Assembly: GCA_963812015.1 (NCBI GenBank)
Contig: CAWETI010000003.1
Span: forward strand, 672,001-736,000
Direction: 5' to 3'
Origin: an uncultured delta proteobacterium
GTDB taxonomy: Bacteria; Desulfobacterota; Desulfobaccia; Desulfobaccales; 0-14-0-80-60-11
DNA length: 64,000 nucleotides
Shown here: one piece after another, positions 9,178 to 40,635 of the stretch
How positions within the stretch are numbered: the first letter of the stretch is position 1
How the letters are laid out: each line of letters opens with the position of its first letter
Program-made: the position numbers and the translations under genes
Notes under the pieces: generated by a model
Seen by the model: the letters and a program-made list of their open reading frames with translations, nothing else
Databases searched by the model: none
What the model was told of the DNA's origin: nothing

Positions 9178-9192
9178 TACGGGATTCTCTCC

Positions 9193-12039: not shown

Positions 12040-12171
12040 TGGCCCTTCCCGAAACCCTGGTCCCGGCGGCCGTGCCTTATGCGTCGTGGAAGGGGTAGTG
12101 AGGTATTTTGGGAGGAGGACCGGGGAGGTAACTCCCCCGCCCCCTCTCTCAGAGCCTTTTGCAGTTAAGAG

Positions 12172-12253
12172 GTGGCACAGGCTTTCCAGCCTGTGCTGAC
12201 GCAGGCTAAAGCCTGCGGCTACCAAAAACAACCCTTTGAACGCAACTCGGTAT
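12172..12253. repeat. REP-like hairpin doublet plus one TIR of the ATACCAAGTTGC family
   Basis: GCACAGGC-TTTCCA-GCCTGTGC and CGCAGGC-TAAA-GCCTGCG; TTTGAACGCAACTCGGTAT at 12235-12253. Confidence 0.6.
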
Positions 12254-12278
12254 CAGAACCAAAACGGTTGTAAAGCGA

Positions 12279-13451: not shown

Positions 13452-14692
13452 TTCCGGTGCAGGTAGTGGGGCTGGGGATGTCCCCGGAGGACCTGACTCC
13501 CCGTGCCCGGGAGATCATCGGGGTGGCCCAGGTGCTGGTGGGGGGGCGGCGGCTTCTCGACTACTTTCCGGAGCACCGGGGCATGAAAATTCCCCTGGGC
13601 AAGGACCCGGAAGGGACCCTCAGGCAGCTCCCGCCCCTGGCCAAAACGAAACGGGTGGTGGTGTTGGCTTCCGGAGACCCAAATTTCTATGGGGTGGGGC
13701 CGCTGGTGGTCCGGGTCCTGGGCGCGGAGCAGGTGGTGATCCACCCCAACCTCACCGCGATTCAAACCGCCTGCGCCCGGCTCCACATGCCCTGGCAGGA
13801 CGCCACCGTCATCAGCCTGCACGGGCGCGCCTGGGAGCCGCTGGCCGCAGCCCTGGGAAAGCCCGGCCCTCTGTTGATCTACACGGACCCGACGCATACC
13901 CCCGGGGAGATTGCCAGCTTTCTGCTGGCCCGGGGCCTGGCTCGGGCCCGGGTGTGCGTGCTGGAAGACCTGGGCCAGGACACGGAGCGGGTCACCTGGC
14001 TGAGCTTGACGGAGGCCCAGGAACGAGGGTTTTCGCCCTTGAACCTGGTGGTGGTGGTGCCGGACCCGGAAGAGGTCAGCCCGGCGCGTCCCCGGCTCCA
14101 TCTGGGGCTCCCCGAGGAGGCTTTGGCCCATGAGGCCGGGCTCATCACCAAGTCCGAGGTGCGGGCGGTGGTCCTGGCCAAATTGAAACTTTTCCCCGGC
14201 CAGGTGCTGTGGGACGTGGGGGCCGGGTGCGGCTCGGTGGGGTTGGAGGCCAGCCTGCTCATCCCCGGGGGAAAGATTTTGGCCGTGGAGCGCCATCCGG
14301 AGCGGGCGGCCCAGATTGCCGCCAACCGGGACACATACGGGGTGAACAACCTGGAGGTGGTGTGCGGCGGCGCGCCGGAGAGCCTGGCGGACCTGCCCGA
14401 ACCCCACCGGGTCTTCGTGGGGGGCGGGGGGCAGGCGGTGGGCGCTATCGTCCAGGAGGCCGTGCGGCGCCTGGGGCCGGAAGGCCGGGTGGTGATTAGC
14501 GCCGCCCTCCTGGAGACCCTGGCCGCGGCCCGGACCGTCCTGGAACAGGCGGGCTGGGAGGTGGAGGTGGTCCAACTCCAGGTGAGCCGGTCCCACCCCC
14601 TGGCCGATGGGAACGCGTTGCAGGCGTTAAATCCGGTGTGGATTATTGCCGGTTACTTGAGGGGAGGGCCGGGGGAGGACAGGAGTCAGTAA
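13448..14692 (+). CDS. cbiET: Cobalt-precorrin-7 C5-methyltransferase / precorrin-6B C15-methyltransferase fusion
   Basis: LASGDPNFYG, SLHGR, ITKSEVRA, WDVGAGCGSV, VFVGGGG, ALNPV. Confidence 0.93.
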   Translation: MIPVQVVGLGMSPEDLTPRAREIIGVAQVLVGGRRLLDYFPEHRGMKIPLGKDPEGTLRQLPPLAKTKRVVVLASGDPNFYGVGPLVVRVLGAEQVVIHPNLTAIQTACARLHMPWQDATVISLHGRAWEPLAAALGKPGPLLIYTDPTHTPGEIASFLLARGLARARVCVLEDLGQDTERVTWLSLTEAQERGFSPLNLVVVVPDPEEVSPARPRLHLGLPEEALAHEAGLITKSEVRAVVLAKLKLFPGQVLWDVGAGCGSVGLEASLLIPGGKILAVERHPERAAQIAANRDTYGVNNLEVVCGGAPESLADLPEPHRVFVGGGGQAVGAIVQEAVRRLGPEGRVVISAALLETLAAARTVLEQAGWEVEVVQLQVSRSHPLADGNALQALNPVWIIAGYLRGGPGEDRSQ

Positions 14693-21620: not shown

Positions 21621-24959
<3,339 letters not shown>

Positions 24960-25163
24960 ACGGGCCTGGGGGGCCGTTCGGGGCGGTGGGGCGGCCGTCC
25001 CCGGCCGCCAACCTGATATCCCGGGCCCAGAGGCCCTTCCCGCCTGAACCGAACCAAAAGCGTGAGATGGGGCGGGTTTAAAACCGGCCCCTCCCACCGA
25101 GATTCGCACATTCCTCATCAGCTAATCCTTGCAATAAACCTCAGAATCGAGAAAAATAAGCTT

Positions 25164-27104
25164 ATGGCAGATAAAAAGACCAAGACTTCCCCCACCCAGG
25201 TGCGGCATGACGTCTCGCTGTTGACGGATGACGATCTCTACCTGTTTAACGAAGGCAGTCACTACCGCCTCTACCACAAGCTGGGGGCCCATGTGCTGAA
25301 TGAGAAAGGGGCGCCGGGAACCTACTTTGCCGTGTGGGCCCCGGATGCCGAGCAGGTTTGGGTCACCGGCGACTTCAACGGCTGGGACAAGGGCAGCCAC
25401 CCGTTGTCGCATCGGGCCCAATCAGGCATCTGGGAAGGGTTCATCCCCGGGTTGGGGCATGGCTCCCTGTACAAGTACCATGTGGCCTCCAAGTACGGCG
25501 CCTACCGGGTGGACAAGGCCGACCCCTTCGCCTTTTCCCTGGAAGGCCCGCCCCGCACCGCCTCCATCGTTTGGGATCTGGACTACGTCTGGGAAGACGG
25601 GGACTGGATGACCCGGCGCCACCGGGCCAATGCCCTGGACGGACCCATGTCGGTCTACGAGGTGCACCTGGGCTCCTGGCGGCGGGTGCCGGAAGAAGGC
25701 AACCGCTCCCTCACCTACCGGGAACTGGCCCCGCTCTTGGCCGAACACGTCCAGCGCCTGGGTTTCACCCACGTGGAATTTATGCCGGTCATGGAGCACC
25801 CTTTTTACGGTTCCTGGGGCTACCAGACCACCGGCTACTTCGCCCCCACAAGCCGCTACGGCACCCCCCAGGATTTCATGTTTCTGGTTGACTACCTACA
25901 CCGGCACGGCATCGGCATCGTCCTGGACTGGGTGCCCTCCCACTTCCCGGCGGACGAGCACGGCCCCGGCTTCTTCGACGGCACCCACCTCTATGAGCAC
26001 GCCGACCCCCGCCGGGGGTTTCATCCCGACTGGCGCAGCGCCATTTTCAATTACGGCCGCAACGAGGTGCGGTGCTTCCTCATGAGCAGCGCCCTGTTCT
26101 GGCTGGACCGCTACCACGCCGACGGCATCCGGGTGGACGCGGTGGCCTCCATGCTCTACCTGGATTATTCGCGGGAAGAGGGGGAATGGCTGCCCAACCA
26201 GTACGGCGGCCGGGAGGACCTGGAAGCCATCGCCTTCCTGCGGCAGTTTAACTCGGAGGTTTATAAGAGCTTTCCGGATGTGCAGACCGCGGCCGAGGAA
26301 TCCACGGACTGGCCCATGGTCTCCCGGCCCATCTATGTGGGGGGCCTGGGTTTCGGCCTCAAGTGGGATATGGGCTGGATGCACGATACCCTGAAGTACA
26401 TGGCCGTGGACCCGGTTTTCCGGAAGTACCACCACAATACCCTGACCTTCCGGATGCTCTATGCCTTCCAGGAAAATTTCCTTCTGCCTCTGTCCCACGA
26501 CGAGGTGGTCTACGGCAAGGGGTCCCTCCTGGCCAAGATGCCCGGGGACGATTGGCAGAAGTTCGCCAATCTCAGGCTCCTCTTGGGGTACATGTACGGT
26601 CAGCCTGGCAAGAAACTGCTCTTTATGGGAGGGGAGTTCGGACAGTGGTCCGAATGGTACCACGAAGCCTCCCTGGACTGGCACCTGCTGGGCGAGCCCA
26701 GGCATGCGGCCTTGCAACGGTGGGTAGAGGACCTGAACCGCTGCTACCGCGGGGAGCCGGCCCTGTTCACCCAGGATTTCAGCCCCGGGGGCTTCGAGTG
26801 GATCGACTGCAACGACTGGGAGCAGAGCTGCATCTCCTTCCTCCGGAAAGGGCGGGAAGGGGAGCTGCTGCTGGTGGCGTGCAACTTCACCCCGGTGCCC
26901 CGGCACGACTACCGGGTGGGGGTGCCGACGGGCGGGTTTTGGCAGGAGGTCCTGAACAGCGACGCCTTTGAGTACGAGGGCAGCGGCCACGGCAACCTGG
27001 GGGGCATGGAGGCTGTCCCCATCCCCTGCCACGGCCGCTTGCACTCCCTCACCCTGACCCTGCCGCCTTTGGGCGTGGTGTTTTTTAAAAGCAGTAGTCA
27101 GTAG
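25164..27104 (+). CDS. glgB: 1,4-alpha-glucan branching enzyme
   Basis: [58 protein letters not shown]. Confidence 0.95.
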
Positions 27105-27234
27105 TCAGTCAAAATGTGGAACAGCCGCCCCGGCTGTTTTTGGAAAAAGACATGGTGCGCAGGGCACACCCTCTCTATGGATTGCCTGTGTAAACCCTTG
27201 CCTTGTGCTGAAAGCTATTGTCATATTCGTCGTA

Positions 27235-27350
27235 ATACGAAGTTGCCGTCAAAAAGGTAATTTTAGCTTTATGATAGCAACCCATGTAGGGGCGGTTCGC
27301 GAACCGCCCCTACAATTCGAATAGTTACTTGTTTGACGGCACCTTGGTAT
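27235..27350. repeat. Miniature element: TIRs around a perfect GTAG REP palindrome
   Basis: ATACGAAGTTGCCGTCAAA (27235-27253) / TTTGACGGCACCTTGGTAT (27332-27350), 17/19; GTAGGGGCGGTTCGCGAACCGCCCCTAC at 27286-27313. Confidence 0.75.
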
Positions 27351-27364
27351 AAGTTCAATACCAC

Positions 27365-27492
27365 AAGCCATTTCAAAACCTGGATGGATAGAGAATTGTC
27401 ATTCTGAGCGAAGCGAAGAATCTCGTATCTTTAATAAGTTGAGATCCTTCACTCCGTTCAGGATGACAAAAAAGCAGGTTTTAAAATGGCTT
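27365..27492. repeat. Miniature element: TIRs around a GTCATTCTGAGCG-type REP doublet
   Basis: AAGCCATTTCAAAACCTG (27365-27382) / CAGGTTTTAAAATGGCTT (27475-27492), 17/18; inner GTCATTCTGAGCG...CGTTCAGGATGAC. Confidence 0.75.
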
Positions 27493-28732
27493 ATAACCAC
27501 TGACCACTGACTACTGTCCCCGTCAACTCCCGATAGAACTCCAGGGTCTGGCGGGCGATGGATGTCCAGCTGAATTCGTCCAGCACCCTCTGCCGGGCCT
27601 TGATCCCCATTTCTCGCCGCAGATCCGGGTTATCCAAGAGTTGGTTCACCGCGGCGGCCAGGTCTTGGGCAAACCTCTGGGCGACGTTAGCCTTGGGATC
27701 CTCTAGGTTTTTCAGGTCCAGGGGCACCAAAAGGCCGGTCTCGCCGGGGAGCACCACCTCCTTGATGCCGCCCACCGCCGAGGCCACCACCGGGGTGCCG
27801 CAGGCCATGGCTTCCAGGTTGATGATGCCGAAGGGCTCATAGATGGACGGGCAGATAAAAAGGGCGGCGTGACTGTATATGGGGATGACGTGGTCCTGGG
27901 GCACGAAGGTGGAAATCCACACGATCTTTTTTCCGGTTTGGGCCTGGAGGGCCTCGATCCTGGCGGCGGTTTCCTGGCCGATTTCGGGGGTATCCGGGCC
28001 GGAGGCGCAGAGCACCACCTGTACCCCGGCCTGGAAATATTCGATGGCCTTGAGGAGGTGCATGATCCCCTTCTGGTAGGTGATGCGGCCCACAAAGAGG
28101 ACGTAAGGACAGTCCGGGTCGATGTGGTACAGGTGCAGGACTTCGGGGTTGAAAGTGGGCTGGTATTGGCTGACGTCGATGCCGTTATAGATGACCCGGG
28201 TCCGTTCCGGCGGCACCCCGTAGAGTTCCTGGACGTCCGTCTTCATAGCCCGGGAAACCGCGATGACCCCGTCGGCGTTCTGGTAGGCGGTCTTCTCCAC
28301 CCAGGTGCTGACCTGGTAGCCGGGACCCAGTTGGTCCGCTTTCCAGGGGCGGTGGGGCTCCAAGGAATGGGTGGTGAGGACCAGGGGCACGCCGAGCAGG
28401 TGTTTGAGGAGGCAGCCGGCCAGGTGGGTATACCAGGTGTGGCAGTGGATGAGGTCCACGTCGGTGAGGGAGCCGGTCATGATCAGGTTGCGGTAGAGGG
28501 TGTCCAGGAGCCGGCGGTTGCGGGGTTCTTGAAAAGGAAAGGTAAACTCGGTGGTGACCCCGGTTACCGTTTCGTTGTCCAGGGTTTCCCGCTGTTCCCC
28601 GAAACAGAGGACCTTGACGGTATGGCGGCGGTCTTCCAGGCGGGCCAGTTCCCGGGTGAGATAGCTGACGTGCACCCCGGCGCCGCCGTAGATGTGGGGG
28701 GGATATTCATTGGTCAGGATAGCTATTTTCAT
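27491..28732 (-). CDS. glgM: GT4 glycosyltransferase, actinobacterial GlgA/GlgM-like (maltose-1-phosphate synthase)
   Basis: LTNEYPPHIYGGAGVHV, HCHTWY, HSLEPHRPWK, FVGRITYQKG, PSIYEPFGIINLEAMAC. Confidence 0.82.
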   Translation of the reverse strand: MKIAILTNEYPPHIYGGAGVHVSYLTRELARLEDRRHTVKVLCFGEQRETLDNETVTGVTTEFTFPFQEPRNRRLLDTLYRNLIMTGSLTDVDLIHCHTWYTHLAGCLLKHLLGVPLVLTTHSLEPHRPWKADQLGPGYQVSTWVEKTAYQNADGVIAVSRAMKTDVQELYGVPPERTRVIYNGIDVSQYQPTFNPEVLHLYHIDPDCPYVLFVGRITYQKGIMHLLKAIEYFQAGVQVVLCASGPDTPEIGQETAARIEALQAQTGKKIVWISTFVPQDHVIPIYSHAALFICPSIYEPFGIINLEAMACGTPVVASAVGGIKEVVLPGETGLLVPLDLKNLEDPKANVAQRFAQDLAAAVNQLLDNPDLRREMGIKARQRVLDEFSWTSIARQTLEFYRELTGTVVSGQWL

Positions 28733-28914: not shown

Positions 28915-29562
28915 ATGGGCAGCAATGTGAGAAAGGTTGCGGTGGACATGTACGAAGACCGGTTGCAGCAGGACCTGGAACGGTACCGGGCCCGGGCCCT
29001 GGAACTGGGGGCCACCCAGGCAAAAATCGTCAAGGCCGAAGAAATTCCGGTGGACGAACGGGTGACCCTGAAATGCCAGATTCCCCGCTGTTTCGGCTAT
29101 GGGGTGAGCGCCCACTGTCCCCCGAACACCATGAAACCGGCGGAACTCCGGGACCTGCTGAAACAATACCATTGGGCCGTGTTTTTCATCAAGGAGGTGC
29201 CGCCGGAGGTGATCGTCCGGGACAAGGCCACCATCAAAGAGCGGGTGGCGGCCTATCAGCAAGTCTATAAAATCGTTAACGAAGTCGAGTCCATGGCCTT
29301 TTATGACGCTCACTACCTGGCCTTCGGGTTTGCCGCCGGCTCCTGCCGCCACACCTTTTGCGGCCAGCAGGAGGGTTGCCTGGCCATGGAAGGGAAAAAG
29401 TGCCGGTTTTCCTTGAAATCCCGGCCGTCCATGGAGGCGGTGGGCATCGATGTCTACAACATGGTGGCCCGGGCCGGCTGGGACATCTATCCCATCGGCA
29501 GCGGCGCCAAGCCGGAGGATATGCCCAAAGGCACCCTGGCGGGCATCGTCATCGTGCAGTAA
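28915..29562 (+). CDS. DUF2284-like predicted metal-binding protein
   Basis: LKCQIPRCFGYG..HCPP, AGSCRHTFC, C...CRF..RPSMEAVGIDV; RBS GAGGAGG. Confidence 0.8.
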   Translation: MGSNVRKVAVDMYEDRLQQDLERYRARALELGATQAKIVKAEEIPVDERVTLKCQIPRCFGYGVSAHCPPNTMKPAELRDLLKQYHWAVFFIKEVPPEVIVRDKATIKERVAAYQQVYKIVNEVESMAFYDAHYLAFGFAAGSCRHTFCGQQEGCLAMEGKKCRFSLKSRPSMEAVGIDVYNMVARAGWDIYPIGSGAKPEDMPKGTLAGIVIVQ

Positions 29563-29875
29563 AACCGCCCTTCGTCACCTCCCGGCATTGGGGCGGCTGG
29601 CTGTCGACCCGCCCGGTGTAGCGGCCCAGGCATACCTGCGCCCCTCCTCCCCTTGGCCGGGGAGGGGGGACAAAGGGATGCCCCTTCCCGCCATGCCCTT
29701 TCGGGAGGGGATAAAGAGATGATGATTTTTGGATTAGGGGAAAAATCTCCTGGGTGCTCATGGCGGTGGTACATTATTCCTCTCTCCATGGGGAAAATAT
29801 ACCGGTGACCGGCAAGAGATTACCCCGCCCTACGCCTAACCCCTCCTTATTTCGTTGAAAATTGCAACATCGGGA

Positions 29876-29892
29876 TTGGCACAGAAATAGCA
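29876..29892 (+). promoter_or_regulatory. Candidate sigma54 (-24/-12) promoter for hdrL-mvh operon
   Basis: TTGGCACAGAAATAGCA: GG(29878-79)-N10-GC(29890-91). Confidence 0.55.
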
Positions 29893-29962
29893 TTATTATA
29901 TTATTTGAAGTATCTCTAAAAAGTGGGGAAGGAATGTTTTAGGAATACTCCAAAATTCCTTC

Positions 29963-29992
29963 TTGACAAAACTCTATACAAATATTTAAGAT
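29963..29992 (+). promoter_or_regulatory. Candidate sigma70 promoter for hdrL-mvh operon
   Basis: TTGACA (29963-68)-N18-TAAGAT (29987-92). Confidence 0.45.
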
Positions 29993-30080
29993 GAACCAAA
30001 GGTAGTTAATTTGTAAGGCTACAAAACCGCAAACCAATCAAAAACACGCCTCGTTAGCTTTTTAACCATAAGGACGTTCT

Positions 30081-33000
30081 ATGTCAGAGTCGGAAAAAGT
30101 ACTGGGATCGGTGATGGTGGTCGGTGGCGGCATCGCTGGGATGCAGGCCGCGTTGGATTTGGCCAACTCCGGCTATTATGTCCACTTAGTGGAAAAGGGG
30201 CCGGCCATCGGTGGCACCATGGCCCAGATCGATAAGACGTTTCCCACCAATGATTGCGCCATGTGAATTATCTCCCCCAAGCTGGTCGAGGTCGGCCGGC
30301 ACACGAACATCGAAGTTCACGCCCTGACAGAATTACTTGATGTGACCGGCGAGCCCGGCCATCTCAAAGTCACCTTAGATAAGCAAGCCCGCTACGTCAA
30401 TCTGGAGAAATGCACCGGTTGCGGTGAGTGCGCCAAGGTCTGCCCGGTAACTATCAAGGACGAATTCAACATCGACCTGGGCACCCGCCAGGCCATTTAT
30501 CGCTCTTATCCCCAGGCGATCCCTTCGGGTTTCGCCATCTCCAAGTTGGACCGGGCGCCGTGCACCATGACCTGTCCGGCTCACATCAATGTCCAGGGGT
30601 ATATACAGCTCGTTAAGATGGGGAAATACACCGAGGCCGTCAAGCTTATCATGGACCGGGCGCCGATTCCCGGGACCCTGGGGCGCATCTGCCCCCACCC
30701 CTGCGAAGAGAAGTGCCGGCGGCAGGAGGTGGATGAGCCCCTGGCCATCTCCGCCTTAAAGCGATTCGCCGCGGATCAGGTGGATTTAGGGGATATCAAC
30801 CCGCCCCTGGTCGAGGCCAAAAAAGAAAAGGTCGCCATCATCGGCTCGGGCCCGGCGGGGTTGACCTGTGCCTATCACCTGGCCCTGCAAGGTTACCGGC
30901 CCACCATCTTTGAGGCGCTCCCCGAGCCGGGAGGCATGCTCCGGGTGGGCATTCCCCAATACCGCTTGCCCCGGGAAGTGCTGAAAGGCGAGATCGACAA
31001 CATCCTGCGCCTGGGAGTGGAACTCAAGCTCAATATGGCTTTGGGGAAAGACTTCACCCTGGATGGTCTCTTTGAACAGGGCTATAAAGCGGTTTTCCTG
31101 GGCATCGGTTGTCATGAAGGCCGAGGTTTGGGAATCCCAGGCGAGGATCTGGAAGGGATCATGCAAGGCGTAGAGTTCCTGCGCCGTCACAATCTGGGCC
31201 AGGAACTTAAGGTGGGCAAACGGGTTGCGGTGGTCGGGGGCGGCAACGTGGCCCTGGACGTGGCCGGCGCCGCCCGGCGCTACGGGGCCACCGTGACCAT
31301 TGTCTATCGTCGCTCCCGGGAGGAAATGCCCGCGCATGCCTGGGAGATCGACCAGGGGTTGTGCGAAGGGATAAAAATCCTCTACCAGGTGGCTCCTCTG
31401 GAAGTGCGGGCCGAGGACGGTAAGGTGGAAACCCTTTTGTGCCAGCAGATGGACCTGGCGGAGCCCGATGAATCCGGGCGGCGCCGTCCCATCCCCATCG
31501 CCGGGGCCGAATTCGAGCTGCCCGTGGACCTGGTGGTGGCGGCCATCGGCCAGGAAGCGGGGGCTGCGGTGCTGAAGGAAGCGGGGATCACCTGTTCCCG
31601 CCTGGGCACCATCGAGGTGGACGAAGTAACGTACATGACTTCCCGGCCCGGAGTCTTCGCCGCGGGCGATGCCTCCACCGGCCCCTGGATCGCCATTGAG
31701 GCGGTGGGCGGCGGCATCGAAGCGGCGGACTCCATCGACCGCTATATTAAGGGCGAAGATATGTATGCCGGCCGGGTCCGGGGTATTGCCGCGGCGCAAC
31801 GCTGGCGGGAGATCCCCAAAGACGAGGAGGGCCGGCCCCGGGAAATTATGCCGACCCTGCCGCCGGAAGTCTCGTCCATCTGCTTTATGGAGGTGGCCCA
31901 GGGGTATAGCGAAGAACAGGCCCGTTCCGAGGCCACCCGCTGCCTCAACTGCGAGATCTGCTCCGAGTGCATGCAGTGCGTGACGGTCTGTCAGGCCGGG
32001 GCCATTGAGCATGAGCAGCAACGCCAGATTGAGGAGCTTGAAGTGGGGTCGGTCATCCTGGCCCCGGGCTTCAAGACATTTGACCCCAGCGGCATAGTCA
32101 CCTACGGTTACGGCAAGCACCCTAATGTCTATACCAGTATAGAATTCGAGCGCATCCTCAGTCCCGGCGGCCCGTTCCAAGGGCATGTGAAGCGGCGCTC
32201 CGACGGCAAAGAGCCTCAAAAGATCGCCTGGATCCAGTGCGTCGGCATGCGGAGTGACCGGGAAGGTGAACACCCCTATTGCTCCAATTTTTGCTGCATG
32301 GCCTCCCTCAAACAGGCGGTCATTGCCCGGGAGCACCTTGGCCCCGATCTGGATATGGCCCTGTTCTATATGGACATCCGCACGCCCCGCAAGGACTTTG
32401 AAAAATACATGGTGCGCATCAAGGACCAGGGGGCCCGCCTCATCCGTTCCCGGGTGCACAGCATAAACCCGGTGGGCCATGACGGCGATCTGGAGATCCG
32501 GTACGTCACCGAAGCGGGGGAGGTTGCAGACGAAATTTTTGACATGGTGGTCCTTTCGGTGGGGATGGTGATTCCCCCGGCCACCGTGGAATTGGCCAAG
32601 AAATTACAGGTCCCCCTGGGTCCCAATAACTTTGTGCAAACCAGCTGTTTTGCGCCGACGACCACGTTGCAGGAGGGGATCTACTCTTGCGGCGCTTTCA
32701 ACGGCCCCAAGGACATCCCCCAGTCGGTGATGGAGGGGAGCGCCGCCGCGGCCGCGGCCGCCCAGCCCCTGACTGCGGCCCGGGGCAGCCTGATCAAAGC
32801 GAAGGAATATCCGCCGGAAAAGGCGGTGAGCGGGGAAGAGCCCCGCATCGGGGTGTTTGTCTGCAACTGCGGCCTCAACATCGGGGGGGTGGCCGATGTC
32901 CCGGCCATCGTGGAATACGCCCGGAATATCCCCAATGTGGAGTATGTCCAGGATAACCTTTTTAGCTGCTCCCAGGATTCCCAGGCCCAGATGGTGGAAA

Positions 33001-34520
33001 AAATCGCCGAGCATAACCTGAACCGGGTGGTGGTGGCGGCCTGCAGCCCCTCTACCCATCAGCCTATCTTCCAGGATATGCTCCGCAGCGCCGGCCTCAA
33101 CAAGTATCTCTTTGAGATGGCCAATATTCGCAACCAGTGCACCTGGGTGCACCAGAACGAACCGGATCGGGCCACGGCGAAATGTCAGGACCTGGTGAAC
33201 ATGGGCGTGGCCAAAGCCCGCCTGCTCCAGCCGTTGGAGTACATCACGGTGGGGGTCAATCACCGGGCCCTGGTGATCGGCGGCGGCGTCAGCGGCATGA
33301 CCTCCGCCCTGAACCTGGCGAATCAGGGTTATGAGGTGCACCTGGTGGAACGCAAGTACCGCCTGGGGGGCAACGCCCTGAAACTGCACACCACCTGGCG
33401 TGGCGGCCTGGTGCGGCCCCGCCTGGACGCTTTGATCGACAAGATCACCACCCACGACAACATCATCATCCATTTCAATGCCATGGTCACCGGGGTTTCC
33501 GGGGTGGTGGGAAACTTCACCACGACCCTCTCCACCGGTCAGGCAATTGAGCACGGCATCGTGGTTATCGCCATCGGCGCCGTACCCTTCCAGCCGGAAG
33601 GTCAATACCTTTATAAACAGAACCCCAACGTCCTGCTTTCCCTGGACATGGATACGGAGATCACCGGGGAGACCGAGCGGCTTAAGAAGTCCCAGGCGGT
33701 GGCATTCATCCAGTGCGTCGGTTCCCGGATCCCGGAGCGCCCCTATTGTAACAAGGTGTGCTGCGCCCAATCTGTAGAAAATGCCATCAAGCTGAAAGTG
33801 ATGAACCCGGAGAGGGAGGTGTATATCCTCTACCGGGATATGCGCACCTATGGCGAACGGGAGATGCTGTACCAGCGGGCCCGGGAATTGGGGGTGATCT
33901 TCATCCGTTACATCGTGTCAGAACCGCCCCGGGTGGAAGAAGCGGATGGCCGCCTGAAAATCACGGTGAAGGACCAGGTCCTGGGGAGGCCGGTGAGCTT
34001 CATGGTGGACCTCCTCACCCTGGCCACCGCCATCATCCCCCACCAGAATGCGCCCCTGGCGGAACTCTACAAGATCCCCCTGAACGCCGAGGGCTTTTTC
34101 ACCGAGGCCCACGCCAAGATCAAACCGGTGGAGGCTCCCACCGACGGCATCTACCTGGCCGGGCTCTGTCATTACCCCAAGCCCATCCAGGAATCCATCG
34201 CCGAGTCCCTGGCCTGCGCTTCCCGGGCCACCACCGTGCTGTCCAAGGACTTCTTGCTGATGGATTCCATCATTTCCAATCCCATCGATGAGAACTGCGA
34301 CGGCTGCGCCTTCTGCGTGGACGCCTGCCCGTTTAAGGCCATCACCCTTCTGGAATACATGAAAGAAGGCAACCTCAGGAAGACCGTGGAAGTCAACGCC
34401 ACCCAGTGCAAGGGCTGCGGCTCCTGTATGGCGACTTGTCCCAAGGCGGGCATCTACGTGGCCGGGTTCACCCCGGAACAGCTGGAAGCCCAGGTGGATG
34501 CGGCTTTGGGGCTGATTTAG
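30081..34520 (+). CDS. hdrL: Large HdrA-like selenoflavoprotein (HdrL type: HdrA module + GltD-like NAD(P)H module + second HdrA module), 1479 aa, Sec62
   Basis: ORFs 30081-30266 and 30342-34520 are in one frame; TGA 30264-66 reads [18 protein letters not shown] vs DKTFPTLDCSI-C-ILGPKL in the paralog; three GxG/GGG nucleotide-binding motifs, GRICPHPCE, many 4Fe-4S motifs. Confidence 0.92.
30281..30300 (+). promoter_or_regulatory. Bacterial SECIS-like hairpin (hdrL)
   Basis: GCTGGTCG-AGGT-CGGCCGGC, 8-bp stem with G-U pairs, loop GG at +24/+25 from UGA. Confidence 0.8.
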
Positions 34521-34686
34521 CAGTAAGCCGCGAGCAGTGAGCAGAGGCGAGGCGGCCATGCCCCACTGCTTCTCCAGGAAAAAGGAGATTTGGATGTGCT
34601 CCCGTCCCCGCGTTGTAGTGGGGAGCCGGGAAGAAGTGAGGCTTTTGGTTTAAAAAGCCGACCGCTGACAGCCAAGGGGTTTTAAC

Positions 34687-35106
34687 ATGGAAGACCAGTA
34701 CGAACCGCTGATTGTCGCTTTCTGCTGCAACTGGTGCTCTTACGCCGGGGCCGACCTGGCCGGGGTCTCCCGGATTCAGTATCCCGCCAACGGTCGCATC
34801 ATCCGGGTGATGTGCTCGGGGATGGTCCACCCCAACCTGGTGATCAACGCCCTCACCAAAGGCGCCGACGGCGTCCTGGTGTGCGGGTGACACCTGGGCG
34901 AATGTCATTACCTGGAAGGTAATAAAAAAGCCCAAGACCGAGCGGAAGGAATTGATTTAATGCTGGAAGACTTCGGCCTGGAGCCGGAGCGGTTCCGGAT
35001 CGAGTGGATTGCGTCCGCGGAAGCCCAGAAATTCGCGGACGTGATGACGGAGATGACCGAAGCCTTACGGATGCTGGGCCCCAGCCCATACAGCACCAGG
35101 GCATGA
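34687..35106 (+). CDS. mvhD: MvhD hydrogenase 2Fe-2S subunit, 139 aa, Sec68
   Basis: [17 protein letters not shown], then [15 protein letters not shown]...EWIASAE...LGPSPY continuing past TGA 34888-90 to TGA 35104-06. Confidence 0.93.
34907..34923 (+). promoter_or_regulatory. Bacterial SECIS-like hairpin (mvhD)
   Basis: ATTACCT-GGA-AGGTAAT perfect 7-bp stem, loop GG at +24/+25. Confidence 0.8.
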
Positions 35107-35242
35107 TGCAGAGAAACCGGCGAAGCGGGCACAAGGGGGACCGGGAATGGAACAGGGAAGGCTCAGGCTTTCTCTCCCATGTCGCCGCGTCGCCTTTGGC
35201 CTGATTCGCTTCTTTTTTTTAGCTTAGGAAGGAGATACGCTC

Positions 35243-35440
35243 ATGGACATCCCCTTGGCCAGAAAGGTCAACGGCAAAAAATTCATGTGGGACGGCGTCG
35301 TCTACGAGAGTGACGAGCAGGCCCAACAGGTTATGGAGGACTATGCCAAAGACGGATTCGAGGTAGAAAAGGTGGTCGAGGACGGCCAGTTCCTGGTGTA
35401 CAACCGCAGGGTCGCGGAAGCCGCACCAGCGAATAGTTAA
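35243..35440 (+). CDS. Small acidic hypothetical protein inside the mvh operon
   Basis: 65 aa, RBS AAGGAG, host-like codon usage, KKFMWDG..Y..DGFEV..LVYNRRV. Confidence 0.75.
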   Translation: MDIPLARKVNGKKFMWDGVVYESDEQAQQVMEDYAKDGFEVEKVVEDGQFLVYNRRVAEAAPANS

Positions 35441-35521
35441 CCGGAAGGGCCAGGGTGCGGGCGGCAGCTAGTCGGACACCGAAAAGCTGACTGCTGGGCA
35501 CTTACCAAAGGAGGGCACACC

Positions 35522-36466
35522 ATGCCGGTAAATGTAGTGTCAGAGTGGTTGAATGCCTGCTCCGGTTGTGAGATCTCCATTCTCAACACCGGGGAGGCGT
35601 TGTTGGACCTGTTACCCCATCTCAATTTTGTCCACATCCCCGCTTTAGTAGATCATAAGTATTATGGTCAACTGGGGGATGGGGCGACCCTGGAGATCCC
35701 CGAGGCCGTAGTGGGTATCGTCTCCGGTGGCGTCCGCAACACCGAGCACGAGCACGTTTTGAAAGCGGTAAGGGAGAAGGTGAAATTCCTCATTGCCCTG
35801 GGCAGTTGTGCGGGCTTTGGGGGCGTGCCGGCCGAGGCCAACATGTGGAAGGGCGAGGAAGTCTTCGACAAAGTCTTCCGCCATTGCGTCACCACCGAGC
35901 CGTCCGCGGACCCCAAAGACCCCAATGTGCCCGTGTGGACGCCCAGCTGCAAGGCCCTGGACGAAGTGGTCAAGGTGGATATCACCATTCCCGGCTGTCC
36001 GCCCCACCCGGATTGGATTGCCGAGGCCCTCACCGCCTTGCTGGAAGGCAAGACGGCCTGGGCCCTGCCGGAGCGGAGCGTGTGCGACACCTGTCCGGTC
36101 ATCCGGGAGAAGAAATCTGGCGGCGGCCCCATCAAACGGGGTTTGACCAACATCGATTTCAACCCCGAAGAAGGCCTGGAGAAGATGCGCTGCATCAATG
36201 AGCAGGGCTTTTTCTGTATGGGGCCGGTAACCCTGGCGGGCTGCGCCGGCAAGACCGGGGTGCCTCGCTGCGTGCAGGCCCGGACTCCGTGCCGGGGTTG
36301 TTTCGGCCCCATCCGCAAGGGGGCCCGGCCCATGGTGGACATGATGGGCGCCCTGACCTCGGTGGGTCTGGATCCCAAAACCTTGATAGACCGTCGGGCC
36401 ATCATGAATCGCTATATCGGCGCGCATGGCTTCCTGACACCGCTGCCGGCCCGGCCGGCACGATAG
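35522..36466 (+). CDS. mvhG: Group 3c NiFe hydrogenase small subunit
   Basis: ACSGCEISI, ALGSCAGFGG, IPGCPP, SVCDTCP, CMGPVTLAGC, PCRGCFGP; no Tat signal. Confidence 0.92.
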   Translation: MPVNVVSEWLNACSGCEISILNTGEALLDLLPHLNFVHIPALVDHKYYGQLGDGATLEIPEAVVGIVSGGVRNTEHEHVLKAVREKVKFLIALGSCAGFGGVPAEANMWKGEEVFDKVFRHCVTTEPSADPKDPNVPVWTPSCKALDEVVKVDITIPGCPPHPDWIAEALTALLEGKTAWALPERSVCDTCPVIREKKSGGGPIKRGLTNIDFNPEEGLEKMRCINEQGFFCMGPVTLAGCAGKTGVPRCVQARTPCRGCFGPIRKGARPMVDMMGALTSVGLDPKTLIDRRAIMNRYIGAHGFLTPLPARPAR

Positions 36467-36478
36467 GGGGTGAGGACT

Positions 36479-37921
36479 ATGGGAAAAGTAATCAATATTC
36501 AACCGGTTACCCGGATCGAAGGCCACGCCAAGGTGGCCATCACGCTGGATGATGCAGGCAACGTCACCGATACCAAGGTGCACGTCCAGGCGCTGCGCGG
36601 CTTTGAAAAATTCTGCGAAGGCCGCCCGGTGGAGGAAATGCCCCGGATCGTCTGCCACATCTGCGGCATCTGTCCCTGGGCCCATCACCTGGCTTCCAGC
36701 AAGGCGGCCGACGCCTGCCTGGGAGTGACGCCGCCCCCCGCGGCGGTGAAACTGCGCCGGCTGATGCAAAGTATCGCCTACGTCAGCGACAAGATCCTCC
36801 ACTTCTACTTCCTGGCGGCGCCGGACTTCGTCATCGGCCCCGACGCCGACTACTCGGTGCGCAACGTAGTGGGCATTATCCAGGCGGCTCCGGACATCGC
36901 CAAGAAGGTGGTGCAGATGCGCCACATGGGGGCCCAGATGCTGGAGCACTTCGCGGGCCGAGCCATCCATCCCACCTTCTCCCAGGCCGGCGGGGTCAGC
37001 AAGCCCATGACCGAAACCGAGCGGAAGGAGATGCTGCCCCTGGCCAATGAACTGCTGGAGTTCTCCAAGTTCTCCATCAACTTCGCCAAGGAAAACGTCT
37101 TTCCCAAGTACCTGGATGCCATCAAATCCATCGGGGTCATCAAGGTAGGGTGTATGGGCACCGTCACGGACGACGGCGCCCTGGACTTCTACGACGGCAA
37201 ACTGCGGCTGATGAAGCCCGACGGCACCTACGATGATTTCGCCTACGATCAGTACGTGGACTACATCGGGGAGTGGGTGGAGCCCTGGTCCTACCAGAAG
37301 TTCCCCTATGCCAAGAAGTGGGGCAAACTCGACATGTCCCTGGACCACCCCGTGGGCGTCTACCGCACCAACTGTTTGGCCCGGATCAACGTGGCCGACA
37401 AGATGAAAACGCCTTTGGCCCAGGCGGAGTTGGAGGAGTTCCGGGCGGCATTTGGCCGGCCGGCCCACTTCACCCTGCTGTACCACTACGCCCGCCTCAT
37501 CGAACTGGTGCAGGCGGCGGAGACCGCGGTGCAGCTGTTGAACGACCCGGAGATCACCAGCCCGGACATCCGGGCGAAGGTCGAACCCAAAGCCGGCCGG
37601 GGCATCGGCTGCGTGGAAGCCCCCCGGGGCACGTTGATCCACGACTACACCTGTGACGACAATGGCCTGATCACCAACGTCAACCTGATTGTGGGCACCA
37701 CTCACAACAACGCCGCCATCAACATGTCGGTCAACCAGGCGGCCAAGACCTTCATCAAGGACGGCAAGTATGACCAGGGAATCCTGAACAAGGTGGAAAT
37801 GGCCATACGCGCCTACGACCCGTGACTGAGCTGCGCCACTCACCGCCTGGATGGCGGTGTCGCTGTGGAAGTCACCTTCTTGAATCAGAAACAAGAGGTG
37901 ATCGACCAGCTCAGGAACTAA
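36479..37921 (+). CDS. mvhA: Group 3c [NiFeSe] hydrogenase large subunit, 480 aa, Sec449
   Basis: [18 protein letters not shown] (L1), [10 protein letters not shown]2 AYDP-U-LSCATH through TGA 37823-25, then 25-aa C-terminal extension to TAA 37919-21. Confidence 0.93.
37841..37859 (+). promoter_or_regulatory. Bacterial SECIS-like hairpin (mvhA)
   Basis: CACCGCC-TGGAT-GGCGGTG perfect 7-bp stem, loop GG at +24/+25. Confidence 0.82.
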
Positions 37922-37941
37922 GTAAGCGGTCAGTTATCAGC

Positions 37942-37990
37942 AAAAAAATGGAGCCACAGGGAATAGCCAAAGCCCTGTGGCTCTATTTTT
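37942..37990. terminator. Bidirectional intrinsic terminator
   Basis: A7-..GAGCCACAGGG (37951-61) / CCCTGTGGCTC (37973-83)..T5 between convergent genes. Confidence 0.7.
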
Positions 37991-38089
37991 CTCGCTCCTC
38001 AGCCCTGGTGGGGAGCGAAAATATGGCCCAAGCTTTGCTTGGATGCAGTTCGTCAGGGTAAATGACGGCCCGGAGCAGCCGGGCCCAGG

Positions 38090-38644
38090 TCATTTCCCCG
38101 CCTTGCCCCGGGATTTGAATTCCCGGTGGCAGGAGGCCATGCAGTTTTGCAGATCGCGCAATTCATGGAGCATGAATTCCTGCTGGCGGTTGGCCACGGC
38201 GTGCTGCAAGTTGGCCAGGTGGTCCAGATATTCCTGCATGGCCCCCTGCCAGTCCGGCTCGGCCATGGCCGCAAAAGCCTGGGAGCTGGCCACGAAGTCT
38301 TCCAAGGTTCGGGCCTCGGGAAAGGCGCCCTGGCCCACCGCCTGCTGGAGCGCCTTAAAGTCGGCGCCCAGGCGCTTCTTGACGCTTTTCAGGGAGTCCT
38401 GCCAGCGGCTGACTTGGTCCCGACCCCCCCGGTCATAGTCCCCCAATGTGGACCAGGACCAGCTCAGCTTGGCATGTATGCGCCCCTTCTTTTCCTTGAA
38501 CTCCATGCTGACGTCCAGGTCATCCGGCGCGGTCCAGTGGCGCCCCTGGACTTCCAGGCCGCCCCGGCGCAGTTGCTCACTTAAATTTTTCAGATAATCC
38601 GCCAGCACCAGCCGGCTCCAGGTCCGTTCGTCTTTTTCTCCCAT
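38090..38644 (-). CDS. Amphi-Trp + XXXCH domain protein (GAK-system type)
   Basis: N-terminal SR..LADYL..L...KLSWSW amphi-Trp pattern; helical C-terminus ending CMASCHREFK. Confidence 0.7.
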   Translation of the reverse strand: MGEKDERTWSRLVLADYLKNLSEQLRRGGLEVQGRHWTAPDDLDVSMEFKEKKGRIHAKLSWSWSTLGDYDRGGRDQVSRWQDSLKSVKKRLGADFKALQQAVGQGAFPEARTLEDFVASSQAFAAMAEPDWQGAMQEYLDHLANLQHAVANRQQEFMLHELRDLQNCMASCHREFKSRGKAGK

Positions 38645-38724
38645 GCCGGGTCACCTCATTGGCGTTAAAAAGTGGGGCTGGATCAGGTGATCGCCATGCC
38701 GATGGCCGAAAGTCGCGGCGGCCA

Positions 38725-40635
38725 TCAGCCGATGACTTCATCCCGCTCGATGAGCCGTGCCATTTCCTCGTCCCGGAGGACCATCTCTTCTCCCCGGAGC
38801 AACCTTCCCACCGCGGTGAGGAGATGCCGGGCGGCCAGTTGATTGGGCAGGTAGACATAGTCAGCCCCGGCGTTATAGAGCGCCAGGGCCCGGGACGGAC
38901 TTTCGGCGGTGACGATGATCCGGGCCTTCGGGGCGGTCTTCTTGATCCGATCAATTAATTTGAGATTATCCGTCCCCACCAGGATCTCATCGGGGATGGT
39001 GGAGATGACGAGCTTGGCCGCTTCAAGGCCGGCGTGGTGCAGAGTTTCCGAGTTGCTGATGTCGCCATAGACGACCTTGACGCCGTGGTGCGGCAATTTC
39101 TGCAATACCCCCGGGTTGAAATCCACCACCACCAGCCGGTCTTTAATATCCACCGCGGCGTCTTCGATTTCCTGAATGAAGGCGCTGGCGACCCGGAAAA
39201 AGCCCAGGATGGCAATGTCTTTATGGACCTCCACCTGGTCCGGGGTATCGCTCTTAAGATCCCGGAAGCCGATAAAACCCAGGCCTTTACTCAAGCAGGC
39301 CTGGAGATTATGATTGTACTTGATCATGTAGGTGGAGGCGACGGAGGTCATCACAAACACAAAGATGATAATGGTTTGAATGTCCGGGACAATATGCCGC
39401 TCTTTGATGCCGATGACGGTGATCACCAGGGCGAACTCGCTGAGCTGGGACAGGTTGATGGAGGTCAGGAGGCTGATCCGGTTGCCGTTTTTTAGGAAAT
39501 AAAGGATGGGAAAGACCGAGAGGAACCGGGAGGCGATGAGAAAGAGGGCCGCGGCCCCCGCCACCAGGAACATCCCCAGGTTGTCCAGGGGATTGGGAAT
39601 TGCCATCCCCAACGCCACAAAAAACAAGGTGATGAAAAAATCCCGGATGTTGACGATTTTGGCAATGATATCAAGGTTGTAAGGAAAGGTGGAGATGGCC
39701 ACCCCGGCAATCAGGGCCCCCATTTCCATGGAGAGGCCGAACGAGCTGGCCAGGCCGGCGATGAGGAAACACCATCCCAGGGAGGCCACCAGGATAAGTT
39801 CCGGGAGTCGGGCAATTTTGCGGAAGATATATCCCAACACGTATTTGCTGAGGACCAGACTGAAGATGACGAGCAGCCCGGCCTCGCCGAACTGCCACAA
39901 GATTTCCAGGAACTGGGGGTTGGCCAGAGTGGACTGGATGCTCAAAAGCACGATGGCCCAGATATCCTGAAAGACTAGGACGCCCAGGGTGAGCCGGCCG
40001 GCCAGGGTGTCCAGTTCGAACTTCTCATAGAGCAGCTTCACCACAATGGTGGTGCTGCTGAGGGCCATACACACGGCTAAATAGAGCAGATCGTATTCGC
40101 CGCCCAGGACCTTGACGCCGAAGATGCGATACTCATAGGGTTCGCCGATGGTGAACCCCAGCAGCATGAAGAAGCCCAGGCCCATGGCGGCGCAGAGAAT
40201 GAACTGGAAAATGCCCGTGGCAATAAGGGATTTGCCCGATTCCTTTAACTTCTTCAGGTCCAACTCCAGCCCGATCATGAACAACAGGAGGATCAGGCCG
40301 ATTTCGGCGATAATCCGGATGTCCGCCTGGCTCTGGACCCAGCCGAAGCCGAAACGGGGGCCGATGGCTGCGCCGGCGGCAATGTAGGCCAGCAACAGCG
40401 GCTGCTTAAACAGGTAGGCCAGATAGGCCAGAACCGTGGCGGCCAGAATGCTGATGCCGATGGCCGACAGCAGGCCGTGGCCGCTGCCGTCAGTGCTGGC
40501 CCAGGCAACTCCGGGGGTCGAGAGCACGAGCGCCGCTAACAGGAGAAGCCTGAATGGCCGATACCTGAACCTGACCAACCGGGCCGAGGTCAACCCCGCC
40601 CTCCTCCTTCCTGATATCCAGAGCCCCATAATCAC
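38725..40635 (-). CDS. CPA2 cation:proton antiporter with C-terminal KTN/RCK domain (KefB/C-like)
   Basis: LLLFMIGLEL, ALSSTTIVVKLL, GVLVFQD, IRDFFITLFFVALG, SQLSEFA, VVYGDIS; start uncertain. Confidence 0.88.
   Translation of the reverse strand: MIMGLWISGRRRAGLTSARLVRFRYRPFRLLLLAALVLSTPGVAWASTDGSGHGLLSAIGISILAATVLAYLAYLFKQPLLLAYIAAGAAIGPRFGFGWVQSQADIRIIAEIGLILLLFMIGLELDLKKLKESGKSLIATGIFQFILCAAMGLGFFMLLGFTIGEPYEYRIFGVKVLGGEYDLLYLAVCMALSSTTIVVKLLYEKFELDTLAGRLTLGVLVFQDIWAIVLLSIQSTLANPQFLEILWQFGEAGLLVIFSLVLSKYVLGYIFRKIARLPELILVASLGWCFLIAGLASSFGLSMEMGALIAGVAISTFPYNLDIIAKIVNIRDFFITLFFVALGMAIPNPLDNLGMFLVAGAAALFLIASRFLSVFPILYFLKNGNRISLLTSINLSQLSEFALVITVIGIKERHIVPDIQTIIIFVFVMTSVASTYMIKYNHNLQACLSKGLGFIGFRDLKSDTPDQVEVHKDIAILGFFRVASAFIQEIEDAAVDIKDRLVVVDFNPGVLQKLPHHGVKVVYGDISNSETLHHAGLEAAKLVISTIPDEILVGTDNLKLIDRIKKTAPKARIIVTAESPSRALALYNAGADYVYLPNQLAARHLLTAVGRLLRGEEMVLRDEEMARLIERDEVIG

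Follow-up and report, generated by a model that had tools for sequence, protein, structure and literature searches.

An hdrL-mvhD-orf65-mvhG-mvhA locus with three probable selenocysteine codons in a Desulfobaccales genome: a candidate NAD(P)H-coupled, HdrA-type [NiFeSe] hydrogenase

Genes of the locus and their selenocysteine codons

The stretch of DNA analysed here (hereafter the window) comprises 64,000 nucleotides (nt) of contig CAWETI010000003.1 (positions 672,001 to 736,000) in the assembly GCA_963812015.1 of an uncultured delta proteobacterium of the Desulfobaccales, and contains at 30081-37921 the five genes hdrL-mvhD-orf65-mvhG-mvhA, all situated on the + strand. With translation table 11, three open reading frames (ORFs) end at the TGA codons 30264-30266, 34888-34890, and 37823-37825; judged from the comparisons below, all three are very probably selenocysteine (Sec) codons, such that HdrL, MvhD, and MvhA would be selenoproteins. 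The five genes constitute an operon of this sulfate reducer, and their order is widely conserved in relatives. Sequence comparison slightly favours the view that the operon encodes a soluble complex, and a probability of about 0.55 is given to the reading that this complex couples H2 to nicotinamide adenine dinucleotide (phosphate), NAD(P)H, as a bifurcating or confurcating enzyme of the HdrA type, with ferredoxin possibly as the third partner. The features of the locus are the following (aa, amino acids; FAD, flavin adenine dinucleotide; SECIS, selenocysteine insertion sequence):

30081..34520, + strand: hdrL, 1479 aa, selenoprotein; fused HdrA pair with GltD/NfnB-like insertion
30255..30266, + strand: CxxU redox motif, Cys59 and Sec62 (TGA 30264-30266), from an ungapped phmmer alignment with 5odc_A
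30281..30300, + strand: SECIS-like hairpin of hdrL, loop AGGU, 18-37 nt past the U of the UGA
30552..31934, + strand: GltD/NfnB-like NAD(P)H-FAD module with two [4Fe-4S] sites, residues 158-618 (Pfam and PDB matches)
32310..32312, + strand: codon of Lys744, equivalent of the flavin-N5 lysine (counted by hand on the phmmer alignment)
32835..34517, + strand: second HdrA-like half, residues 919-1479 (phmmer and self-alignments)
34687..35106, + strand: mvhD, 139 aa, selenoprotein, Sec68 at TGA 34888-34890; the stop is TGA 35104
34907..34923, + strand: SECIS-like hairpin of mvhD, loop GGA
35243..35440, + strand: orf65, 65 aa, without Cys and without known family
35522..36466, + strand: mvhG, 314 aa, [NiFe] hydrogenase small subunit (PF01058 at 1.2e-28, VhuG at 3.5e-54)
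36470..37921, + strand: mvhA, 483 aa, [NiFeSe] large subunit, Sec452 at TGA 37823-37825
37841..37859, + strand: SECIS-like hairpin of mvhA, loop UGGAU (z = -2.29)

Read through as Sec, the three TGAs yield proteins of the lengths given above, and the frames stay open and conserved past each of them. A first-pass annotation of this DNA had placed the three codons at conserved Cys positions, which is borne out by alignments to solved HdrA and MvhD and by the L2 motif of MvhA. Sec62 of HdrL corresponds without gaps to residue 197 of solved HdrA 5odc_A (query 12-114 against target 147-249), the pair Cys59/Sec62 thus matching HdrA Cys194 and Cys/Sec197. Sec68 of MvhD takes the place of the Cys of GGCH(I/L)GDCHY in all five solved MvhD chains among the matches listed. 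Concerning MvhA, the group 3c large subunit is described with an L1 motif ICGxCxxxH and an L2 motif AYDPCxxCATH (PMC6085437); MvhA carries an L1 motif of this type and L2 as RAYDPULSCATH, in which Sec452 (U) replaces the first Cys.

The Sec machinery is present in the genome, with selA (608 bits), selB (368 bits), and selD (373 bits) all exceeding the curated cut-offs, and with a tRNA-SeC(tca) at C4:18351-18448 (ARAGORN). The selD gene (C2:1058596-1059513) contains one in-frame TGA itself, such that SelD would be a selenoprotein, too.

A SECIS-like stem-loop is expected shortly 3' of a UGA read as Sec, the criteria being its spacing and a G in the loop. Hairpins begin 18-20 nt past the U of each in-frame TGA and exhibit GG in their loops (z = -1.3, -1.9, and -2.3); at the terminating TGA 35104 no hairpin is found (z = +0.9). 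All 7 pairs of the hdrL hairpin are kept in the 53 unique relatives (53/53), 6 of the 7 pairs of the mvhD hairpin are invariant at synonymous sites in 42 of 42 (the remaining pair is broken in 6), and five G-C pairs of the mvhA hairpin are invariant in 24 of 24. The changes observed are nearly all one-sided, with almost no two-sided compensatory changes, so that the support for the hairpins consists in conservation, not in covariation. An Rfam scan of 29000-39000 returned three chance-level matches only and no SECIS family.

Codons at the Sec sites were counted in the tblastn matches covering each site. TGA is present in 35 of 35 matches at the MvhA site, TGA in 52 and Cys in 11 of the 63 matches at the MvhD site, and TGA in 62 and Cys in 15 of 125 matches at the HdrL site (62 of 77 informative ones); in the other 48 HdrL matches, the first half of the query is paired with second halves or with paralogues, and a gap or another residue is situated at the site. 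The Cys codons in relatives of HdrL and MvhD are TGC or TGT, Cys being found in the more distant homologues. An MvhA match at E <= 1e-60 was obtained for 105 of 301 sampled genomes of the phylum; the in-frame TGA is carried by 28 of the 33 best matches (54-100% identity) and is absent from nearly all matches at <=49% identity.

The alternative that the genes are decaying pseudogenes or split genes, with the TGAs as true stops, agrees with the table 11 ORF call, which stops at each TGA, and with a truncated piece of mvhA elsewhere in the genome. This piece, a 74-aa ORF at C3:371126-371425 (L085:5214-5438), is 57% identical to the C-terminus of MvhA, has the same TGA (DPUxxCATH), and adjoins a 454-aa ORF which is transposase-like by eye only; it is probably the remnant of a second mvhA. 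However, since the stop codon, the downstream frame, and the hairpin are all conserved in the counts given above, and with the Sec machinery at hand, the pseudogene reading is rejected as hardly credible. If an annotation pipeline stops at these TGAs, three subunits of a hydrogenase common in the phylum will be lost or cut short.

The hydrogenase subunits resemble the archaeal Vhu and Mvh proteins. MvhD matches FlpD at 2e-53 and MvhD in the PDB at 1.8e-45, and MvhA matches VhuA at 2.8e-143 and, over residues 435-463, VhuU. The top matches of MvhA are VhuA NF041785 (477 bits, curated 800) and the PDB chains 9sfi_g (4.4e-128) and 5odc_F (1.2e-125), with the NiFe-HydL chain 7t2r_D (1.1e-116) and the NAD-reducing 5xf9_D (1.3e-106) not far behind. 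As far as their sequences tell, the proteins are relatives, not equivalogs, of the archaeal models. A group 3c-type [NiFeSe] hydrogenase is the somewhat preferred placement of MvhA-MvhG, made by best matches, not by a tree. The minimum set of group 3c is given as MvhG and MvhD, with HdrABC encoded alongside (PMC6085437); MvhG, MvhD, and an HdrA-type protein are present in the window, but no HdrB or HdrC gene, and no CCG (HdrB) domain is found within its 64 kb.

Domain organization of HdrL and position of the NAD(P)H module

HdrL had been described as two HdrA-like flavin modules joined to a GltD-like NAD(P)H module, and Pfam, NCBIfam, phmmer, and self-alignments agree with this. HdrA models match in four stretches (Pfam, NCBIfam), and GltD/NfnB-type models match residues 158-655 (Pfam Fer4_20 at 158-234 with 3.3e-19 and Pyr_redox_2 at 250-543 with 1e-58; NF009410 with 553 bits, cut-off 516); solved HdrA in the PDB matches at 1.1e-177. 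The domain map was drawn from four phmmer stretches against HdrA and two self-alignments.

According to this map, residues 1-157 contain the start of a thioredoxin-reductase (TrxR)-like FAD domain with Cys59-x-x-Sec62 and, at 111-122, a CxxCxxCxxxCP sequence, the first cluster motif of the ferredoxin domain inserted into HdrA. The GltD/NfnB-like module (158-618) is situated between the two cluster motifs of this inserted domain. From around 620 to 905 follow the second cluster motif and the remaining FAD domain, including the cluster motif CVG...YCSNFCC and Lys744, which is equivalent to HdrA Lys409 and BamE Lys280 (hand count on the alignment) and is found in half 1 only. The second half begins with the HdrA N-terminal cluster domain (919-1060), continues with a second FAD domain (1061-1395) that lacks both the CxxU pair (a gap of 5 residues) and the inserted ferredoxin domain, and ends with a C-terminal two-cluster ferredoxin domain (1396-1479); at the position of Lys744, it exhibits a Glu (CCAQSVE in the self-alignment, versus CCMASLK in half 1).

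Half 1 thus combines the TrxR-like FAD domain, the N5 lysine, and the Cys194/Cys197-type pair by which the bifurcating module of HdrA is recognized. On sequence grounds the two halves are complementary and constitute a built-in HdrA heterodimer, in which half 1 is likely to hold the bifurcating FAD (at Lys744), and the flavin site of half 2, being without this Lys, is probably structural. Since Sec62 maps to HdrA residue 197, the Sec of HdrL lies at a known and mechanistically debated site: Sec197 of Methanococcus maripaludis HdrA pairs with a Cys, and the authors suggest for this pair a role as selenenylsulfide relay linking FAD with a [4Fe-4S] cluster (PMC13518236). The Cys-x-x-Sec pair of HdrL would provide a bacterial system for studying this thiol-selenol relay of methanogen HdrA.

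Concerning the inserted module, the closest solved relatives of residues 145-636 are 9bov_A (5.5e-131), 9n5u_A (1.8e-125, NfnA of an NfnABC), and 8oh5_C (StnC, 3.9e-119), which rank ahead of NfnB (4ylf_B, 3e-90) and GltD. Its layout is that of the NfnB/GltD family, i.e., an N-terminal domain with two [4Fe-4S] followed by FAD and NAD(P)H Rossmann domains; an NfnA or GltB partner is not found within the operon, to which this look was confined. For StnC, the GltD-like domain is reported as a non-bifurcating entry port for NADPH, leading over two [4Fe-4S] into another bifurcating unit (PMC10482914).

The point of insertion bears on the function. In Mvh-HdrABC and in BamE, the inserted ferredoxin domain is described as the low-potential exit, and the high-potential electron leaves via the TrxR-domain cluster to HdrC or BamD (PMC9012536; preprint 10.64898/2026.04.10.717634). 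The first-pass annotation had the GltD module replace HdrBC as the high-potential arm of a complex coupling H2 to NAD(P)+ and ferredoxin. In such a scheme, electrons from 2 H2 would be bifurcated without HdrBC to NAD(P)+ (high-potential) and ferredoxin (low-potential), and the complex would be a [NiFeSe]/HdrA analogue of HydABC. The statement of the first-pass annotation that no hdrB or hdrC is adjacent holds, and this speaks for such a scheme: no CCG gene lies in the window, and in a tblastn screen of limited sensitivity no CCG-like match was found in the flanks of 34 of the 36 related hydrogenase loci described below. The bifurcating-flavin hallmarks kept by half 1 point in the same direction, as does the thermodynamic precedent of HydABC (PMC5861303). 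However, the module interrupts the inserted ferredoxin domain instead of lying at the TrxR-domain cluster contacting HdrC or BamD, a topology which is at odds with GltD standing in for HdrBC, and the usual ferredoxin exit is occupied by the insertion, such that a new ferredoxin site would be needed. The proposed role of GltD as high-potential arm was therefore not upheld, and the scheme is considered rather unlikely.

Related loci, electron route, and surroundings

With one genome scanned per species, 70 related loci were obtained, by their record titles nearly all from Desulfobaccales, Syntrophobacterales, or unclassified deltaproteobacterial metagenome-assembled genomes. Thirty-six of them hold mvhG or mvhA. 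Among these 36, 12 possess a contiguous GltD-type hdrL, 21 contain at the same point around 3 kb of NuoE-like, NuoF-like, and 2Fe-2S-Fer4 genes, and 3 end there at a contig border. In L063 (5516-11580), hdrL consists of three genes, and the mvhD-orf65-mvhG-mvhA cassette is unchanged: the first gene joins the N-part of HdrA, including the same Sec, to a NuoE-like thioredoxin-like domain, the second encodes a NuoF-like protein of 636 aa (Complex1_51K at 1.7e-47, NADH_4Fe-4S), and the third begins with 2Fe-2S and 4Fe-4S domains and continues with the remainder of HdrA plus the second half. As MvhA of the NuoEF-type loci L042, L046, and L019 is 94-96% identical to that of the window, the module has been exchanged among close relatives while the hydrogenase cassette was kept. 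This swap is a direct observation, as are the genes, the Sec sites, the domain topology, and their conservation, and it constitutes a natural experiment on the assembly of bifurcating enzymes from parts. Two unrelated pyridine-nucleotide modules at one site are the strongest argument that coupling to NAD(P)(H) is the function of the insertion.

The small gene orf65 is situated between mvhD and mvhG in 36 of the 36 loci holding mvhG or mvhA. Its product has no match in Pfam or NCBIfam, its 200 close relatives are all unnamed or "hypothetical", and its family (222 representative clusters at E <= 0.001) comprises nearly exclusively stand-alone proteins of 50-90 aa. The AF2 (AlphaFold2) model exhibits a beta-beta-alpha-beta-beta fold (mean confidence, pLDDT, 87) without a match at E <= 0.001 in a Foldseek search of the PDB; an atlas search gave unnamed clusters only, plus a weak SPOR lead at 0.77. 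A complex prediction of orf65 with MvhG scored 0.00 against a mark of 0.32, which is uninformative on binding in either direction. In L037 (207-6915), a Syntrophobacteraceae contig, orf65 follows hdrL-mvhD and precedes genes for a response regulator and for a 256-aa protein in which two stretches are DsrC-like, no hydrogenase genes being present; from this occurrence, orf65 may belong to the HdrL/MvhD side.

Apart from the window copy, the genome contains four HdrL paralogues that are 47-62% identical (C3:937870-943145, C3:2010058-2018221, C2:991609-996494, and C2:3019-7799). Each of the five full-length HdrL genes is followed by mvhD, which carries an in-frame TGA next to three of the four paralogues, and the window copy alone is linked to mvhGA and orf65. 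Furthermore, the genome contains a group 1-like and a second group 3-like [NiFe] hydrogenase, neither match with an in-frame TGA, and four hydrogenase endopeptidase-like genes. When 29500-38300 is divided into 30 bins, 28-29 of these are covered by contigs (93-99% alike) from four wetland metatranscriptome libraries; most of the contigs carry many differences and come from relatives, and one spans the TGA of mvhD. The bin 29794-30087 upstream of hdrL is uncovered in all 4 runs, the matches being contigs from libraries which may hold DNA, such that presence in RNA libraries is demonstrated, not transcription.

By homology, the gene products would form a complex for which the electron path, the pyridine nucleotide, the third partner, and bifurcation itself may be predicted as follows. 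H2 would be split at the Ni-Fe-Se site of MvhA, and the electrons would pass over the clusters of MvhG and the 2Fe-2S centre of MvhD to the C-terminal ferredoxin domain in half 2 of HdrL and onward to the FAD of half 1, possibly via the Cys59/Sec62 pair and the N-terminal cluster of half 2. One exit would lead from the split ferredoxin domain over the two GltD clusters and the GltD FAD to NAD(P)+; with the GltD module spliced into the inserted ferredoxin domain of half 1, this flavin exit would be hard-wired to NAD(P)+/NAD(P)H. The other exit would be the TrxR-domain cluster, which is without an operon-encoded partner. The third partner would most simply be ferredoxin, and the complex then a [NiFeSe]/HdrA analogue of HydABC, or else a higher-potential acceptor at the HdrC docking site. 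The direction would be set by H2 pressure; with ferredoxin as the third partner, low-H2 habitats would more likely favour H2 formation.

Several points weigh against this route. The predicted proteins offer no ferredoxin-docking site that could be named, and the GltD module lies on the arm which is of low potential in solved Hdr and Bam complexes. Were ferredoxin the other acceptor, NAD(P)+ would have to be the high-potential one for thermodynamic reasons; either the arms have different roles here, or a partner other than ferredoxin is used. In NCBIfam, the matches to VhuA, VhuG, and HdrA score below the curated cut-offs, and the CCG screen of the relatives made use of the 17 CCG domains of this genome only. 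These 17 matches and DsrC (dsrAB and dsrC are present) make an HdrBC-like or DsrC partner encoded elsewhere in the genome conceivable. One HdrL paralogue (C3:937870-942303) adjoins CCG-domain genes, one of them with two CCG domains; CCG-like genes are situated beside hdrL-mvhD in the hydrogenase-less L031 and L035, and the DsrC-like gene of L037 stands after hdrL-mvhD-orf65 in a locus likewise without hydrogenase. Around 2 kb downstream of mvhA, CCG-like genes occur in 2 of the 36 hydrogenase loci.

If the usual polarity of the arms were kept, NADP+ would be the low-potential acceptor, and the higher-potential one would be encoded elsewhere, with DsrC and HdrBC-like proteins as candidates. In this alternative, H2 would drive the reduction of NADP+ as the low-potential branch, which would be useful at the low H2 of sediments, with NADPH below the H2 couple. 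An HdrBC- or HdrD-like protein, DsrC, or an electron-transfer flavoprotein (ETF) would be the high-potential acceptor, and the remaining electrons would be passed on to sulfite reduction. The position of GltD on the homologue of the low-potential arm agrees with it, as do the dsr and CCG genes of the genome and of the related loci just named, the order HdrL1-MvhD before dsrABC in Desulfobacterium (Db.) autotrophicum (PMC2702500), and an in-vivo potential (E') of NADPH of around -370 mV (PMC10482914). On the other hand, no such partner is found in the operon or in 34 of the 36 related hydrogenase loci, and sequence data are poorly suited to testing for a partner at another place in the genome; this alternative is judged unlikely. 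The coupling of H2 to NAD(P)H by an HdrA-type complex, with ferredoxin as a possible third partner, is preferred.

Whether the case can be generalized is more doubtful than the reading of the single locus: tentatively, Desulfobaccales and relatives may possess modular, HdrBC-free, HdrA-based [NiFeSe] hydrogenases, in which GltD/NfnB or split NuoE/NuoF/2Fe-2S modules are interchangeable in the ferredoxin arm of a self-heterodimeric HdrA and orf65 is an extra subunit. If true, two potentially bifurcating flavin sites would be arranged in series, and H2, NAD(P)H, and ferredoxin or a sulfur-cycle acceptor would be balanced near the thermodynamic limit.

The operon is accompanied by the following features:

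28915..29562, + strand: gene of a DUF2284 metal-binding protein (Pfam PF10050 at 3.5e-34), conserved upstream neighbour of hdrL
29876..29992, + strand: two sigma-70-like promoter matches in the AT-rich gap 5' of hdrL (consensus scan only)
37965..37982, + strand: terminator-like hairpin with T-rich tail 3' of mvhA (consensus scan; number of sites not above shuffles)

The promoter consensus scan gave 6 sites versus 3.3 expected from shuffles. A DUF2284 gene is situated immediately 5' of hdrL in 16 of the 70 related loci; the protein of the window exhibits distant similarity to NCBIfam models of DUF2284 selenoproteins (MbdU), and no Sec codon is seen in this copy. A second Hdr-like cluster at 473-5700 consists of a 280-aa poly-ferredoxin, an 819-aa HdrA-like/MvhD fusion (FlpD at 9.5e-49, without TGA), and a 538-aa HdrA-like protein, and an HdrL-like match lies directly upstream of the window (C3:669041-671569). 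The surroundings at 6290-14689 and 21621-28732 are ordinary, with an ABC transporter of the iron/cobalamin type, cobalamin biosynthesis genes (CobQ-like, CbiC, CbiD, methylases), and a glycogen/trehalose cluster (alpha-amylase-family genes, branching enzyme, GT4 glycosyltransferase).

Comparison with known systems

The term HdrL goes back to Db. autotrophicum HRM2, for which a "heterodisulfide reductase/glutamate synthase fusion" with an NADH-binding site was described in 2009; HdrL1 and HdrL3 are selenoproteins there, and each HdrL is followed by mvhD, with four Sec forms of mvhD (PMC2702500). HdrL of the window agrees with this definition in its HdrA domains, its GltD-like domain, and the mvhD following it, the comparison being made with the published description only. 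Clusters of HdrABC/HdrL, Mvh1, and Mvh2 are reported from proteomes of Syntrophobacter fumaroxidans (PMC5947623, PMC8691401, PMC10787695). As far as these sources describe them, the HdrL loci of the two species are linked to dsr or hdrABC, whereas HdrL of the window is linked to mvhGA and orf65. The designation of the operon as hidden, as given in the first-pass annotation, applies to a naive ORF track only: a Sec-containing HdrL together with a Sec-containing MvhD has been in print since 2009, and a selenoprotein operon frhA-frhD-hdrA of archaea and Deltaproteobacteria is treated in a 2026 review (PMC13188914).

Both the gene families and the notion of an operon of selenoproteins have been published before, and the particular assembly is a variant of the Mvh-Hdr kind. 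A comparative genomics study of sulfate reducers by Pereira et al. in 2011 may describe hdrL-mvhDGA clusters. Added here are the correspondence of Sec62 to position 197, the asymmetric two-half HdrL, the NAD(P)H module on the ferredoxin arm, its exchange for a NuoEF-type module, and the conservation of orf65.

The three selenoprotein families are the same as in Hdr-Vhu of M. maripaludis (HdrA Sec197, VhuD, VhuA/VhuU), with Sec at corresponding sites, the MvhA Sec being in the DPUxxC motif; the MvhD adaptor is shared with Hdr-Vhu and the Mvh-HdrABC of Methanothermococcus (5ODC). Despite this similarity, the system of the window is bacterial, its HdrA consists of two dissimilar fused halves with a GltD insertion, and its operon contains no HdrBC. 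Furthermore, MvhA and the Sec-containing C-terminus form one polypeptide instead of VhuA plus VhuU, an additional gene of 65 aa is present, and one Sec is found in MvhD, whereas VhuD is listed with two (PMC13188914).

With HdrA9-11 of ANME-1 (anaerobic methanotrophic archaea), HdrL shares an NfnB-like insertion of around 500 aa which interrupts the inserted ferredoxin domain, and with fused or tandem HdrA of ANME the complementary domains interpreted as a built-in heterodimer (PMC9012536). The ANME proteins, as described in that source, are archaeal and without a linked hydrogenase; in their fusions, the N-terminal domain is retained in the N-terminal half, from which Cys197 is missing, whereas HdrL exhibits the reverse arrangement.

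BamE of the class II benzoyl-CoA reductase of Geobacter metallireducens is, like HdrL, a fused HdrA dimer with a Lys-bearing bifurcating FAD in the first TrxR domain; its second FAD is structural, its Cys59-x-x-Cys62 pair forms a disulfide close to a cluster, and its complex includes a Sec-containing MvhD-like adaptor and a NuoEF/HydBC-type NADH module (preprint 10.64898/2026.04.10.717634). According to the same preprint, the NuoEFG-like module of Bam feeds electrons in via BamI and BamF, the outputs being BamD (HdrBC-like) and a tungsten enzyme; in the window, in contrast, electrons would enter from a hydrogenase, and the inserted ferredoxin domain holds the NAD(P)H module (GltD-type here, NuoEF-type in relatives). 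The Sec reported for BamF is at position 19 and not in the GGCH motif as in MvhD of the window.

StnC, NfnABC, and NfnB modules possess, as does the module studied here, two [4Fe-4S], FAD, and an NADPH site. The Stn module is wired to a bifurcating unit of the HydBC type and that of NfnAB to NfnA, whereas here the unit is of the HdrA type; the sequence is compatible with a GltD FAD that bifurcates as in NfnB and with one that does not, as in StnC.

As had been stated already in the first-pass annotation, a biochemical characterization of the assembly seems to be lacking: a full-text literature search, with subscription papers outside it, found no biochemical study of an HdrL-Mvh complex. The listings of characterised bifurcating enzymes in two publications contain no HdrA-type [NiFe] hydrogenase with NAD(P) (PMC5861303, PMC13689815), and the latter, from 2026, still treats HdrA-type bifurcating enzymes as the one family not using NAD(P)H. 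An Mvh hydrogenase wired via HdrA to an NAD(P)H module without HdrBC would extend this family. It would also provide sulfate reducers and syntrophs with a [NiFeSe] counterpart of HydABC, setting the balance of H2, NAD(P)H, and ferredoxin in wetlands and sediments.

HydABC and NiFe-HydABCSL, whose chain 7t2r_D is among the close matches of MvhA, might be functional analogues coupling H2, NAD(P), and ferredoxin. Their bifurcating module, however, is unrelated, with flavin mononucleotide (FMN) in HydB versus FAD in HdrA.

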